Of a DNA stretch of 10,223 nucleotides, positions 5,236-10,175 are shown one piece after another. Origin of the DNA: an uncultured Deferribacteres bacterium. GTDB taxonomy: Bacteria; Zhuqueibacterota; Zhuqueibacteria; Zhuqueibacterales; Geothermadaptataceae. The position numbers were made by a program, and so were the translations under genes. Every line of letters begins with the position of its first letter. Position 1 is the stretch's first letter. The notes beneath the pieces are model-generated. The model searched no databases. It had not been told where the DNA came from and saw only the letters and a list, made by a program, of their open reading frames with translations. The stretch lies in the NCBI GenBank assembly GCA_964014485.1, contig CAXHAT010000244.1, positions 1 to 10,223 on the forward strand, in the 5' to 3' direction.

Positions 5236-5990
5236 ATGTCTTACTACACACGACAACGCCATCAAAAAGACCAGGCTCATCCCGCACGTATTATGCCCAA
5301 AGCGGCTGAGCCTGAAAAACCGCCTGCAACATTGCAAGGCGTCTCGCCGCGAATTTCTGCCAAGAACGCCGCTTCCCCGCCCGACATTCCGCTCACGCCG
5401 CAGAATCTCTGGTATTTGCAGAAAACTGTCGGAAATCAAGCCGTCGGGCGGTTGATTCAGGCCAAATTGAAAATCGGCCAGCCGGGAGACAAGTACGAAC
5501 AGGAAGCCGACCGCGTGGCGGATGAAGTGATGCGTATGCCGGAGCCACGCATTCAACGCGCGCCCACTTGAACGCGCGCCAACCGTTTCTCGTGCAGGAA
5601 TAACGAAGAAGAGCCGGTTCAGGCCAAACCGCTCGCTGAGAAGATAACACGCGTGCTCCAAAAACAGGTTGTGGAAGAAGACGATGATCTGTTGCAAGCC
5701 CAAACGAGCAACGGGCAAGCCCCGGAAGTCGCGCCCGAGCTTGCTTCCCGAATTAATTCTTTTCAATCCGGCGGCCAGCCGCTGCCCCAACCTGCGCGCG
5801 CTTTCTTCGAGCCGCGTTTTGGAGCGGATTTCAGCCATGTGCGCGTGCATACGAATGCACAAGCGGCGGCTTCGGCAAAAGCGCTCAACGCCAAAGCCTA
5901 CACTCTTGGGCAAAATGTGGTGTTTGGCGGCGGGCAGTATCAGCCGGGCACAAGACAAGGGCGGAGATTGTTAGCGCATGAGCTGACGCA
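5236..5990 (+). repeat. Direct repeat copy 1: shared effector leader + DUF4157 cassette
   Basis: Collinear with 8916-9670 at a constant offset of 3680 nt at every position checked. Similarity ends right after the LAHELTH codons. Confidence 0.95.
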
Positions 5991-8568
5991 TGTGGTACAG
6001 CAAGCTCCAGGAATCTTCCGCACAAATGAGCATTGGAGTAAAGTTTTGAGATTTCAGACATCAGTCGCCGCCGAGCCTATACCCGCTCCAGAAATCGAAA
6101 CTCGTGGCCCCCTCTGGGAACGAGCCAGAAGCTACGAACCTCCGATGCGGCCTCCCTTGGAGCATGTCCCGACCATACCGTCGCCACCGATCCCCCAAAC
6201 GCCCTCTTCCCCAGCTACTTGTCCCGATGCAGAAACCATTCGCGAAGAAATTAGAACTAACGACATTGTTGAAGCAACGGAACGAAGAATGCGTTATTCG
6301 ATCAATCTTGAGCGTTCACGCGGCGCATTTCGTCAGCCGTTTCGCTTAACGCAAACATTGATCAGGCAGTCGGATAGAGCGATTCGGGCCGCATTTGGAA
6401 CCATGCTGCCTTCAGGCCGAAATTTAGCTTCACATCAGGCAATTACGACGAGAACGCCGTCACAATTCGCTCAGCTTAGAATCCCTAATGAACAAGCGGC
6501 TCGTCAACGGATCGCGAGGGTTGCCATACAAACTTCGCCGGATATATTGCGCAGTCTGTGTATTTTAGAACCTACTCATAGTATTTTGCTCAACGAAGTT
6601 GCTACTCCTTTGCTTAGTCGGTTGGGAATGAATTTTGTGAGAGAATATGAGAGAATACGAATCGGCGGGCAAACCACCCATTCATACTCTGGGGGCAGTT
6701 GGAGCCGGCATATAGATATTCCGAATCAGCACAGACACATTGGACACATCTTAGTTCATGAGGGGATGCATTATTATGTTAATGATGAGTACTACGGCAC
6801 CGCAAACGGTCATCCGCTTGAAGAACAGCTGATCGAAGAAGGAGCAGAAGCTTTAGCGCGCCACGTAATTAACCAGCGGTTAAACACCGATCCAGCCTTT
6901 AGGATAAATACTGCGACCTACTCCTCTGAATTTCATTATGTGCAGAATCATTTTATGCGCGGCGGACTTTCATCGTTTGCATTGGCCTACTTTCAAGGAC
7001 GTGTTGATCTTTTGGGCATTACACCCAGGAGTGTTCCTACTCCTGAACTATCTAGTGGAATTATCCAAAGGAAAGAAAATCAAAAATTAGCACCAAACAG
7101 ACTTCAACCACAGGTGAGCAGTTCAACGAAACAGATTCTGCATTTAGAAGCGGTGGATTTGACTGCAGGTGCAGTTGCACCCTGGCGAAGTGGCACAAAT
7201 GTGGAAAGCGGCTATTTTTACCCGCAAACGATTCAAAGAGAATCCCAATCACGCGCCGTTCGGGAAATCGAAGAGCAGTCTCATCGCATGGAGGGAGACC
7301 CTGTACGTAGTTCCCCCAACAGGGGAGCTTCAATAAGTAATGGTACCCTGACCTGGGAATTACGCAACGTAGGTGATCTTGGTTCAATACGGTCGGACGG
7401 TGCGATTGTTATGGGAATGGATGTAGAAATGCGCGCAAGATTCACAGCGACATCGGATGCCAGCAATTGCCCGACTATAACCTTTTTGCAAACGGTGATC
7501 GCCACTACCGGGAGTATTCCAAGCGCAAGCCACCTTCTGTTCACCCGGGAGTCCACTTCGGGTGCGTCTGTGGATGTAACAGAAAGGGATACGGAGCCTT
7601 ATTACGGCGTCGAACCGGTTCTTGGAGGAGCGGGACTCCAGCCTGAACCGAGTACCAGGATATCCGGAGCCGGACGAACAGATGCGGCTACATTTCGCGA
7701 TACGCCAATGTGGAACAGCAGTTTAATACCTCCTGGTCAGACGTTAGTGAGAGAATTTGAACTAGCAGTCATCTGTGTAGAAACAGGGGAGACCTTCGGG
7801 TCTCTGCGCTGGGGGTACACAAAGACGAGGGAAGGTCTGATAACACTTACCGGCGCACAAGCCGGAGACCTGCGGTCTACTGCTGCCAGTCCCCAATTGG
7901 AGAGTATCAGGCTGTCATTCTATAGCGGTTTTTTTCAACACACTTTGTCAGGTTTCTCTCGCGGATCTGCCAGTCTTCTACGGGACCATCGCACTATTCT
8001 TCGCAATATTGCAGCACTCCCGAATGTTCGGCGCATTTTGTTGGTGGGCGCAAACGATTTTTCAAGAGGACCAGAAGCCAATACAACACTTTCTCTAAGG
8101 CGTGCTGAACGCGCGCGGGATTACCTGGTTCGCCACAGAGTAGATCAGAGTGTAATCACCGTGGAAGGTCATGGCGTTGCAAGTCGAGTTGCCAACCTTC
8201 CAGGACAACAGGTAGCTGCAAACCGGCGGGTGGACATTCACATCGACCGTGGAAGAATCGGAGAAAGCGGTGGTGGGATTGGCAGTCCGGTAGAAGCGCA
8301 ACGTTTAAGACGTCAAGATCCACGGCTCACTTTTGGGAGATTGATCGATTTATTGATAGAATTACAGAGCAGGCGTGGCAATCTCCCACGCACGGAATGC
8401 AATCAATTGACCCATATCGTCGATGCACTGCGACGGTGGAGAAGGATCGATCCTTCTGTCCCGGATGTGATCGAAATCTACGGGCCGACGATACAGGCGG
8501 TGCGCAGGCGTTGTAGCCATATACCCAGGGCTGAATTTCCCTGGCTCCCTCCGCCTTTGAGACCTTAA
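5236..8568 (+). CDS. DUF4157 (eCIS core domain) multidomain effector, 1110 aa if the in-frame UGA at 5569-5571 is recoded (putative selenocysteine 112); C-terminal zincin, unknown beta-rich domain and OmpA-like domain
   Basis: ORFs 5221-5571 and 5653-8568 are in the same frame. The 81 nt between them are open and encode [27 protein letters not shown]. Leader motifs [13 protein letters not shown] and [21 protein letters not shown] normally sit in the same chain as DUF4157. ATG 5236 aligns exactly with ATG 8916 of the paralog. DUF4157 identity is high confidence; the read-through is inferred. Confidence 0.75.
5569..5621 (+). promoter_or_regulatory. In-frame UGA plus putative bacterial SECIS element (copy 1)
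   Basis: Upper stem UUUCU(5586-5590)/AGGAA(5596-5600), with one G-U pair, closes loop CGUGC (5591-5595) 19 nt after UGA. CGUU/AACG can extend the stem, and UGAAC(5569-5573) can pair with GUUCA(5617-5621). Confidence 0.65.
5770..6003 (+). other. DUF4157 / eCIS core domain (HExxH metallopeptidase-like), copy 1
   Basis: GGQPLP...[19 protein letters not shown]...A...[40 protein letters not shown]. Confidence 0.92.
6757..6849 (+). other. Second zinc-metallopeptidase active-site motif (HExxH ... EG, gluzincin-like) in the payload
   Basis: [10 protein letters not shown] (HEGMH at 6757-6771) followed ~22 residues later by [13 protein letters not shown] (EEGAE at 6835-6849). Confidence 0.7.
7954..8244 (+). 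other. OmpA/MotB-like C-terminal (peptidoglycan-binding fold) domain
   Basis: FSRGSASL...[29 protein letters not shown]...V....ITVEGHG......ANRRVDI matches the OmpA_C consensus F..gsa.L / GhtD..G...N..LS.rRA..V..yL / G.G / NRRVei. Confidence 0.85.
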
Positions 8569-8915: not shown

Positions 8916-9670
8916 ATGCCTTACCACAAATTCCAACGCCAGCAAAAAGAAAAGACTCATCGAGCGCACTCAGTTCCCAAAGCAGATGAGCCTGAAAAGC
9001 CGCCTGCAGCATTGCAACGCGTCTCGCCGCGAATTTCGACCAGGAATGCCGCTTCCCCGTCCGACATTCCGCTCACGCGCCAAAACATCCTGTACTTGCA
9101 GCAGACTATCGGCAACCAAGCCGTCGGGCGGTTGATTCAAGCCAAATTGAAAATCGGCCAGCCCGGAGACAAGTACGAGCAGGAAGCCGACCGCGTCGCC
9201 GATGAAGTGATGCGTATGCCGGAGCCGCGCATTCAGCAAGCACCTACCTGAACCCGCGCCAATCGTTCCTCGTGCAGGAATAACGAAGAAGAGCCGGTTC
9301 AGGCCAAACCGCTCGCTGAGAAGATAACACCCGTGCTCCAAAAGCAGGTTGTGGAAGAAGGCGATGATCTATTGCAAGCCCAAATGGGTGGCGGTCAAAC
9401 CCCGGAAGTCGCGCCCGGGCTTGCTTCCCGCATTCGCTCTCTTCAATCCGGCGGCCAGCCGCTGCCCCATCCTGCGCGCGCTTTCTTCGAGCCGCGTTTT
9501 GGCGCTGATTTTAGCCGCGTGCGCGTGCATACGAATGCAGAAGCGGCGGCTTCGGCAAAAGCCCTCAACGCCAAAGCCTACACCCTCGGGCAAAACGTGG
9601 TGTTTGGCGCTGGACAATATCAGCCGGGCACAAGACAGGGGCGGAGATTATTGGCGCATGAGTTGACGCA
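8916..9670 (+). repeat. Direct repeat copy 2: shared effector leader + DUF4157 cassette
   Basis: Collinear with 5236-5990 (offset 3680 nt). Confidence 0.95.
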
Positions 9671-10175
9671 CACGCTTCACCAAAGAACAATCAATCGCAG
9701 TCTCATTCAACGAGACTGCGATTGCTCAAGGATATCGGGAGCTCGCACACCTACAACGGTTGAAGAACAGAGCCTTATGAGAAGGTTTCCAAATTTGAGA
9801 AGAAATGATTGGTGTATAACCGGCCCAAGAACGCGACAGTACAATTGTCATGCTTTTGCAGCGGGCAATCAAACCGAATTTCGCACAGGTCCCGATATTG
9901 ACAGACGATGGGGAAACAGAGACGGTCGTGTTACCCATTTAGATTTCGACGATTATTACAAAACTGAATCGGGGTTGCAGCCAGCTGAAGATTATTGTCC
10001 GGCAGATGCGCGGGTCGTGCTTTTTGCAAGTGGCGGGAGCCCGAAACATTCCGCGCGTATCGTGAATAATGCCTCTGGGACTATTGCCGAGAGCAAGTTG
10101 GGGAGATCTTGGAGAATTGTGCATTACCTGAACCAATTGGAAGGCGGCCCTTACGGCGATATCGTGCGTTATTAA
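8916..10175 (+). CDS. Second DUF4157 effector, 419 aa if the in-frame UGA at 9249-9251 is recoded (putative selenocysteine 112); C-terminal papain-like Cys/His domain
   Basis: ORFs 8916-9251 and 9333-10175 are in the same frame, with an open 81-nt spacer encoding [27 protein letters not shown]. There is a good RBS at 8901. DUF4157 lies at 9450-9683. The C-terminus reads FPNL..YNCHAFA...KHSAR...[18 protein letters not shown]. Confidence 0.75.
9249..9301 (+). promoter_or_regulatory. In-frame UGA plus putative bacterial SECIS element (copy 2)
   Basis: Perfect upper stem UUCCU(9266-9270)/AGGAA(9276-9280) closes loop CGUGC (9271-9275) 19 nt after UGA. UCGUU/AACGA is an alternative lower stem, and UGAACC(9249-9254) pairs with GGUUCA(9296-9301). 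Confidence 0.65.
9450..9683 (+). other. DUF4157 / eCIS core domain, copy 2
   Basis: [28 protein letters not shown]...[41 protein letters not shown]. Confidence 0.92.
9786..10172 (+). other. Papain-like (Cys-His) putative toxin domain, DUF7689-like
   Basis: YNC (Cys at 9846-9848), KHSAR (His at 10047-10049), SKLG (10092-10103) and terminal YG. Family assignment is from motif recall. Confidence 0.6.

Follow-up and report, generated by a model that had tools for sequence, protein, structure and literature searches.

Escherichia coli fdhF is a bacterial selenoprotein gene whose selenocysteine insertion sequence (SECIS) lies within the open reading frame. A second described system that bears on the locus studied here is the cargo of extracellular contractile injection systems (eCIS). 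According to the accessible parts of two surveys, the 3' end of an eCIS operon is the place where cargo toxins are encoded (PMC8213781), and the PVC-metallopeptidase is a predicted autoproteolytic releasing peptidase with an HExxHxxQ signature (PMC3482391; PMC8213781). For one such system, AlgoCIS, the available portion of a preprint describes the N-terminal domain as required for cargo loading and DUF4157 as dispensable (preprint 10.64898/2026.05.27.728243). Here we analyzed contig CAXHAT010000244.1 of an uncultured Deferribacteres bacterium, the complete 10,223-bp contig (the window) from an 8.4-Mb genome that is 97% complete, and in it two DUF4157 cargo genes, A and B, that are each interrupted by a TGA at codon 112. 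We propose, with a probability of about 0.85, that both are intact selenoprotein genes, each encoding one polypeptide with selenocysteine (Sec; U in motifs) at position 112. Sec insertion at this codon had been put forward in an earlier sequence-only reading of the window, and it is now supported by a conserved TGA in relatives, a SECIS-like hairpin, Sec machinery in the host and in other carriers, and relatives with cysteine. The data are best explained by a selenoprotein family, not listed before, among the DUF4157 cargo of eCIS; its recoding mechanism is standard, while its biological setting and the place of the Sec in the protein are unusual.

A shared TGA with selection on both sides

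The frames that open at ATG 5236 (gene A) and ATG 8916 (gene B) each contain a single TGA, codon 112 in both, and continue to TAA stops at 8566-8568 and 10173-10175, with no other in-frame stop over 1110 and 419 codons. The sequence-only reading had described one TGA at the identical position and a frame that stays open into DUF4157, and the downstream matches confirm this: the eCIS_core family PF13699 scores 114.2 bits over residues 182-257 of gene A and 112.9 bits over residues 182-258 of gene B, against a cut-off of 22, and the HExxHxxQ-type signature reads HELTHVVQQ in gene A and HELTHTLHQ in gene B. As that reading had also expected of standard annotation, translation table 11 cuts each cargo gene in two, into 5236-5571 plus 5653-8568 for gene A and 8916-9251 plus 9333-10175 for gene B.

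Comparing the paralogs codon by codon, we recovered the earlier observation that the codons around the TGA differ mostly synonymously while the TGA itself is kept: the Q, A, P and T codons and the T codon that follows carry synonymous changes, and one R/Q change is non-synonymous. The count given for the 81-nt stretch behind the TGA (27 codons, 113-139) was likewise correct, with four differences, two synonymous and two non-synonymous, and codons 119-138 (60 nt) are identical between the genes. In the leader, codons 55-111 show proportions of synonymous and non-synonymous differences (pS and pN) of 0.48 and 0.05, and the ratio of non-synonymous to synonymous rates (dN/dS) for the eCIS core downstream of the TGA is 0.13. 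As judged from these codon comparisons, purifying selection is acting between the paralogs on both halves, before and after the TGA. The identical run that contains the TGA is 5 nt long, the nearest differences lying 1 nt upstream and 3 nt downstream of the TGA, indicating that the TGA is old relative to the synonymous divergence and not part of a fresh conversion tract; on this ground we rejected gene conversion as the origin of the TGA in both genes. Both proteins also show the U-x7-C spacing proposed earlier (U112 and Cys120), within a linker that reads APT-U-TRANR[FS]SC-RNNEEE.

A pair of pseudogenes that share an inherited nonsense mutation could look similar at first sight, as TGC or TGT (Cys) becomes TGA by one change and some homologs that carry a TAA or TAG do have the appearance of broken genes. 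Such a history is highly improbable given purifying selection on both sides of the TGA over a dS of ~0.3-0.8, the lack of frameshifts or further stops in either gene, and the presence of the same TGA in 28 other genes from several phyla.

TGA is the stop found at this position in homologs

We collected homologs at 78 loci from species-representative genomes and at 76 from metagenomes. A tblastn query with X at the TGA gave 292 high-scoring segment pairs (HSPs), 257 of them spanning the linker, and a stop falls in the aligned column in 20 of the 257 (17 distinct genes after duplicate removal). The carriers include Candidatus Brocadia, Desulfobulbia, Desulfobacterales (two metagenome-assembled genomes), Desulfurivibrionaceae, Nitrospirae/Nitrospirota (two), candidate division NC10, Verrucomicrobiia and three metagenome contigs, and the motifs of these relatives at the site are KP[TG]-U-PFAxGPxC-GEEE and APT-U-KAAAC-PQVEEE. 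For a fresh test, a profile search was run over 301 genomes of one carrier's phylum, and it found matches in 14 genomes; the rows of this test read one TGA in 13 cases and one TGA plus one TAA in one case, and none had TAA or TAG only. It added ten new TGA copies with the same KP[TG]-U site, three in genome G130, six in G174 and a fourth in G064. By tblastn, seven of the new copies align at column 112, and the three at locus L203 fall at 103-114 from gap placement. One further TGA copy, at L180, is cut by a contig end. TAA or TAG at this position would speak against Sec, and the tabulation of the aligned column gave TGA in 20/20 cases of the first set and 10/10 of the fresh set. In total, we saw at least 30 genes in six phylum-level groups, and their stop is TGA in 30/30. 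All 11 stops found elsewhere in the HSPs are TAA or TAG. Six homologs (L197, L161, L089, L075, L182 and L191) have scattered TAA/TAG stops and the look of ordinary pseudogenes, in contrast to the column that holds only TGA.

Sec-form effectors also occur in tandem arrays of two to four per stretch (L084 and L113 on one Desulfobacterales chromosome, L204 on G174:C77, L203 on G130:C14, and L180), adjoined by copies without a TGA, and the window likewise has its Sec forms in tandem. This arrangement suggests that the recoded leader was duplicated several times and combined with different toxins at the C-terminus.

Short leaders of this type are present in protein databases as well. A search with the 111-aa leader, limited to proteins of 61-195 aa, returned 415 proteins at E <= 1e-5. 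Leaving aside the two leaders of the window, 56 of the best 118 protein entries terminate at the position homologous to the proposed Sec site; the endings are KPT (39), APT (6), NPT (4), TPT (2), QPT (2) and KPN, KPG and APS (one each). Many of the short database leaders are 110-112 aa long, and the named ones are called 'hypothetical'. In a tree of 114 leader-plus-core sequences, obtained by a quick search only, the TGA label needs 8 changes, and well-supported branches force only 1.

Selenocysteine machinery in the host and in other carriers

The host genome encodes selA (567 bits), selB (332 bits) and selD (377 bits), each scoring above its curated cut-off, together with a tRNA-Sec (68.8 bits, with the gathering score at 47; ARAGORN anticodon TCA), so that selA, selB and tRNA-Sec, whose absence would have told against the proposal, are all in place. 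The host selD (L017, G000:C68) is a UGA gene itself, with an in-frame TGA read as CG-U-AAK and, at nt 16-29 after the UGA, the hairpin AGCCC[GGUC]GGGCU, a textbook SECIS with a GGUC loop. At least two further DUF4157 leader genes of the host, at G000:C117:5599-6150 (- strand) and G000:C12:28885-30831 (+ strand), have no TGA, and Sec and non-Sec forms thus coexist in one genome.

A reassigned code, in which TGA specifies an amino acid (for example Gly or Trp; NCBI table 4 or 25), would also keep the frames of genes A and B open, and nothing beyond those open frames speaks for it. TGA works as a normal stop in this host, where it ends 489 of 1483 long open frames and is the genuine stop codon of the CIS12-family gene in the window, and the carrier genes L064, L118a and L085 themselves end in TGA. 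We rejected reassignment, as stop usage contradicts it and its likelihood is next to nil.

Across the 12 TGA-bearing genomes, selA is over cut-off in 11, and in the remaining one, G062, both selB (309 bits) and tRNA-Sec (73 bits) are present. The expectation that TGA versions would occur only in genomes with Sec machinery was therefore borne out in 12/12 carriers, by selA or by selB plus tRNA-Sec. By comparison, selA is present in 26 of the 58 genomes in which the homologs retrieved have no TGA, a survey that leaves nine further genomes outside it. Fisher's test on an earlier tally (9/10 versus 24/56) gave p = 0.013, a value overstated because of kinship among the genomes. This association bears on a Sec-independent alternative, in which a near-cognate tRNA leakily reads through the UGA, with the hairpin as stimulator, and toxin output is throttled. 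Any read-through would account for selection downstream of the codon, and in E. coli a UGA with C or A as the next base, the situation here, is a leaky stop; leaky decoding is nevertheless distinctly improbable, considering the presence of the machinery in every carrier as against fewer than half of the other genomes, the Cys that relatives have at the position, and the location of the hairpin, with its G/U loop, where the SECIS of the host selD sits.

A conserved hairpin after the UGA

The 29 aligned sequences (28 distinct) are gap-free over 48 nt from the UGA, and they share a hairpin that starts ~15 nt after it, with nt 18-22 paired to nt 28-32 and a loop of nt 23-27. RNAalifold, unprompted, returned the pairs 19-31, 20-30, 21-29 and 22-28 with the same loop, and local folds place a hairpin at the site in 29/29 genes. 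Upon counting pairs for columns 17-22/28-33, we found 86.3% of cells paired versus 48-64% when the partner was slid by 1-3 columns, as well as double (compensatory) changes in four pairs. The covariation score of 0.352 compares with a shuffled mean of 0.250 and was reached by 0/500 shuffles, a figure that is descriptive only because the sequences are related. In the apical loop, which reads CGUGC, AGGUC or GUC, G24 is at least 90% conserved and is accompanied by U25. The Cys codon of the U-x7-C pair lies within this loop in most genes, and in gene A the loop codes for Ser-Cys120. The two window copies differ from each other in the hairpin region at two positions, both a C/U exchange opposite G, and their stems are A/U-rich.

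R1, a covariance model trained on 17 sequences from outside the window (36 nt, 5 pairs), was run over the window with filters off. Its best match is 9249-9284 in gene B (18.9 bits, E 2.3e-4) and its second 5569-5604 in gene A (15.4 bits, E 2.5e-3), and the next match has 7.8 bits. In 885 kb of sequence from 180 other loci, the top-scoring unrelated matches had 15.8 and 13.9 bits. L049, a relative with a Tyr codon and no UGA, still scores 20.7 bits.

Cysteine counterparts in the linker

The QRKCxxCEEE segment that the sequence-only reading had named for this part of the homologs proved real, the linker consensus of 114 aligned homologs being QRxCxxCEEE, and Cys is present in 149 of the 257 linkers. 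The U column of the 114-row alignment contains 19 U, four Cys (L023, L179, L141 and L162), one Tyr, one Gly, two Thr, two Glu and 85 gaps; the Cys codons are TGT in L141 and TGC in L162, and L023 and L179 have four-Cys motifs. The claim that the UGA occupies a Cys position thus stands in the sense that relatives have Cys there or adjacent to it, with approximate homology. The nearest Cys forms read PG-C-SS-C-GD versus PG-U-x7-C-GE. From these motifs, Sec may have replaced the first Cys of a Cys pair (CxxC or a four-Cys motif), with the spacer growing from 2 to 4-7 residues, and this growth would be about what the placing of a SECIS loop needs. At L049:1223-1270 a TAC (Tyr) and at L120:3106-3153 a GGA (Gly) stand where others have TGA, and by their sequence these two look like recent losses of Sec; the Tyr form has kept the hairpin.

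One polypeptide or two

The split that gene callers introduce could also be biologically real: the TGA would then be a true stop, and the locus would yield a 111-aa leader and a DUF4157-toxin protein made from GTG 5653/9333 or by re-initiation. In both paralogs, a GTG stands 28 codons past the TGA with a purine-rich GAGAAG upstream, the callers produce exactly those pieces, and the hairpins of the window are weak. Across 19 genes, however, the first in-frame ATG, GTG or TTG lies anywhere from 2 to 55 codons after the TGA, a spread that indicates no conserved restart, and the stretch between TGA and start keeps the C-G-EEE…Q.KPL…ITPL motif that is common to uninterrupted homologs. A true stop would also leave unexplained why the codon is TGA in 30/30 genes and why it goes with Sec machinery. 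In addition, loading of AlgoCIS cargo requires the N-terminal part, as far as the available text of the preprint reports (10.64898/2026.05.27.728243), and by analogy, a cargo severed from its leader would probably not be loaded here either. Taken together, we consider two separate proteins improbable, and Sec insertion into a single chain remains our preferred reading.

For the class-1 genes, the residue after U is Pro in 11/13, encoded by CCG (3), CCT (3) and CCC (5). Codon-position variability around the UGA across the family is uninformative, because the divergence is saturated. An AlphaFold2 model of residues 55-270 has a mean predicted local distance difference test score (pLDDT) of 75.5, with values above 90 over the core and ~66-70 around U112 to C120. 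A structural comparison of the modelled core with VIA-align gave the VgrG2b effector domain (6H56, chain 6h56_B) as the best match, at Z 9.1, with mini-zincin zymogens at Z 4-5, a likeness that fits the published PVC-metallopeptidase; a Foldseek search of the modelled protein against the PDB found nothing at E <= 0.001.

Points that weigh against Sec insertion

Several results argue against the Sec interpretation, most of them concerning the RNA element in the window itself. Local minimum free energies (MFE) of the hairpin are -1.9 kcal/mol for gene A and -4.8 kcal/mol for gene B versus -4.8 to -10.3 kcal/mol for the others, the weakest of the set; in folds of 36-45 nt of the window sites, another pairing wins; and MFE folds of 72-121 nt after the UGA have unremarkable z-scores (+1.08, -0.37, +1.15 and -1.25). 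The 72-121 nt structures also differ between the paralogs, and the short hairpin is clear only from the family alignment. Rfam gave no match at the UGA sites at E up to 10, the R1 score of gene A (15.4 bits) is equalled by one unrelated match (15.8 bits), and R1 scores partly reflect sequence homology and not structure. On the side of the proteins, the linker is variable and poorly alignable, with 85 of 114 rows gapped at the U column, and the homology between Sec and Cys is for this reason only approximate. Two other host paralogs have no Cys in the linker (owing to an 11-aa deletion or an acidic linker). Regarding distribution, 14 of 60 relatives of the host's class have homologs and none of these has a stop/TGA form, and the tree does not place the window pair with the other TGA clades.

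A proposed mechanism

We propose that the host SelB and tRNA-Sec would decode the UGA at codon 112 as Sec, guided by the short hairpin ~15 nt downstream with G24 and U25 in its loop. The product would consist of the N-terminal leader, the U-x7-C pair, the DUF4157/PVC-metallopeptidase domain and a variable, toxin-like C-terminus, in which the leader, by analogy with the one eCIS tested, may be the part that loads the cargo into the injection tube. As a by-product, synthesis of the full-length toxin would depend on selenium and SelB.

What the Sec might do is a matter of speculation. U112 and Cys120 could form a latch on the releasing metallopeptidase that responds to redox state or metal, acting as a zinc ligand for the HExxH site or as a selenylsulfide that would keep the peptidase or cargo inert until injection; this is the idea we prefer, though tentatively and with the odds clearly against it. 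Selenium-dependent synthesis and a redox or metal switch had both been raised in the sequence-only reading. Rated lower still is a fuller 'selenocysteine switch', in which U112 and Cys120 would hold the zinc of the metallopeptidase or tether the cargo by a selenylsulfide until it meets the reducing cytosol of the target, with the UGA tying toxin output to selenium. The 108 of 257 homolog linkers that contain no Cys at all count against a latch as a general feature, and a latch can therefore not be general to DUF4157.

The surrounding locus

Genes A and B lie on the same strand directly downstream of one CIS12-like and two CIS13-like genes (Table 1), the latter two, in the tail-fibre position, standing in succession. 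On the strength of these CIS12/CIS13-like and cargo genes, the window is identified from its sequence as the usual 3' end of an eCIS operon, whose sheath, tube and ATPase genes would lie outside this contig. Gene A is ordered as leader, U112, eCIS_core metallopeptidase domain, a long region without family match and a C-terminal OmpA-like domain; gene B as leader, U112, eCIS_core and DUF7689. The peptidoglycan-binding OmpA-like domain of gene A sits near the C-terminus of the cargo, after ~640 residues that match no family, and the OmpA-type NCBIfam matches to this region are all under their cut-offs. At the start of the contig, positions 23-94 (- strand) contain a perfect 8-bp G+C-rich hairpin, AUUCCCGC-GGAG-GCGGGAAU, which may be a terminator; its Rfam match, FtrB, is at chance level (22 bits against a gathering score of 66).

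Table 1. Features of the 10,223-bp window (Sec, selenocysteine; AF2, AlphaFold2; aa, amino acids; nt, nucleotides)
Feature	Positions	Strand	Basis
CIS12-family baseplate gene	147..2255	+	NCBIfam NF053768 CIS12_fam, E 1.1e-57; Pfam Tail_P2_I
CIS13-like gene (tail-fibre position)	2295..3542	+	NF053767 CIS13_fam, E 6.3e-27, under curated cut-off
Second CIS13-like gene	3579..5219	+	NF053767, E 9.5e-23, N-terminal 84 residues only
Effector gene A, UGA read through, 1110 aa	5236..8568	+	Translation; Pfam eCIS_core 114.2 bits, OmpA 36.1 bits
UGA, proposed Sec codon 112, gene A	5569..5571	+	
SECIS-like hairpin A, UUUCU / loop CGUGC / AGGAA	5586..5600	+	nt 18-32 counted from the U of UGA
eCIS_core / DUF4157 / PVC-metallopeptidase domain, gene A	5779..6006	+	Pfam; AF2; VIA-align
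OmpA-like domain near C-terminus, gene A	7954..8193	+	PF00691, 36.1 bits, aa 907-986
Effector gene B, UGA read through, 419 aa	8916..10175	+	Pfam eCIS_core 112.9 bits, DUF7689 59.1 bits
UGA, proposed Sec codon 112, gene B	9249..9251	+	
SECIS-like hairpin B, UUCCU / loop CGUGC / AGGAA	9266..9280	+	
eCIS_core domain, gene B	9459..9689	+	Pfam, aa 182-258

Implications and comparison with known systems

The earlier statement that DUF4157/eCIS cargo had not been described as selenoproteins agrees with our literature searches, which had subscription journals outside their coverage: no paper was found that pairs DUF4157 with selenoprotein or selenocysteine, none pairs 'extracellular contractile injection' with selenocysteine, 'contractile injection' and selenocysteine co-occur only in unrelated passages, and PF13699 is mentioned only in an unrelated context. 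Table 1 of PMC13188914, which lists 119 families (the supplements and the BSepDB family table lying outside our coverage), has no DUF4157, peptidase, toxin, effector, secretion or phage entry, the nearest being 'selenobacteriocin', and the nine new families of deep-Sep, in the part of that work accessible to us, do not include DUF4157 cargo. No NCBIfam model matches the leader. The family would place a selenoprotein in injected toxin cargo, a setting where selenium has not been described before. As gene callers split these genes and separate the loading leader from its cargo, effector catalogues and machine-learning screens of eCIS toxins would miss or mis-describe them. A Sec where relatives have CxxC also offers a handle on what the Cys motif and DUF4157 itself do. 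If selenium gates the synthesis, trace-element supply would be linked to microbial warfare, and should the doubtful switch be true, contractile injection systems would gain their first selenoprotein, one in which Sec serves as a latch coupled to delivery rather than in redox catalysis.

Compared with bacterial selenoprotein genes, the cargo genes share the presence of SelA, SelB, SelD and tRNA-Sec in the genome and the existence of Cys homologs. The arrangement is that of the host selD, with a UGA followed ~12-15 nt on by a 5-bp hairpin with G and U in its loop (GGUC at nt 21-24 in selD, CGUGC at nt 23-27 in the cargo genes). Unlike in such genes, the proposed Sec of the cargo lies in a poorly ordered leader, outside any recognisable redox-enzyme active site, and the codon of its partner Cys lies in the SECIS loop.

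At the level of the protein, the modelled core resembles the C-terminal effector domain of Pseudomonas aeruginosa VgrG2b (PDB 6H56), with a root-mean-square deviation of 3.4 A over 97 aligned residues at 21% identity, whereas VgrG2b is a type VI secretion system spike fusion without such a leader or any Sec. Zinc metallopeptidase zymogens with a cysteine switch are known from the pro-domains of matrix metalloproteinases (MMPs) and ADAMs, and the cargo may be analogous to these in having a Cys/Sec upstream of an HExxH domain that would need to stay inactive until delivery. 

A predicted Sec-containing exported antimicrobial, selenobacteriocin (TIGR04081; PMC13188914), is, like the cargo, a weapon-type protein and hence a predicted precedent for selenium in such a protein; the accessible part of that paper characterizes selenobacteriocin as a small peptide carrying an SGUG motif, and it is unrelated to contractile injection systems. 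Genes A and B are closest to the DUF4157 cargo described before (AlgoCIS Cgo1 and Cgo2; Geller et al. 2021; Zhang et al. 2012), with which they share a leader, an HExxHxxQ domain, a variable C-terminus and a place behind the cis12 and cis13 genes of an eCIS operon, at its 3' end, and the OmpA end of gene A matches the 'Tox-OmpA' PVC class as far as the accessible part of its description goes (Zhang et al. 2012, PMC3482391). What sets the two genes apart from described DUF4157 cargo is a leader interrupted by a UGA that, in our reading, is recoded as Sec.

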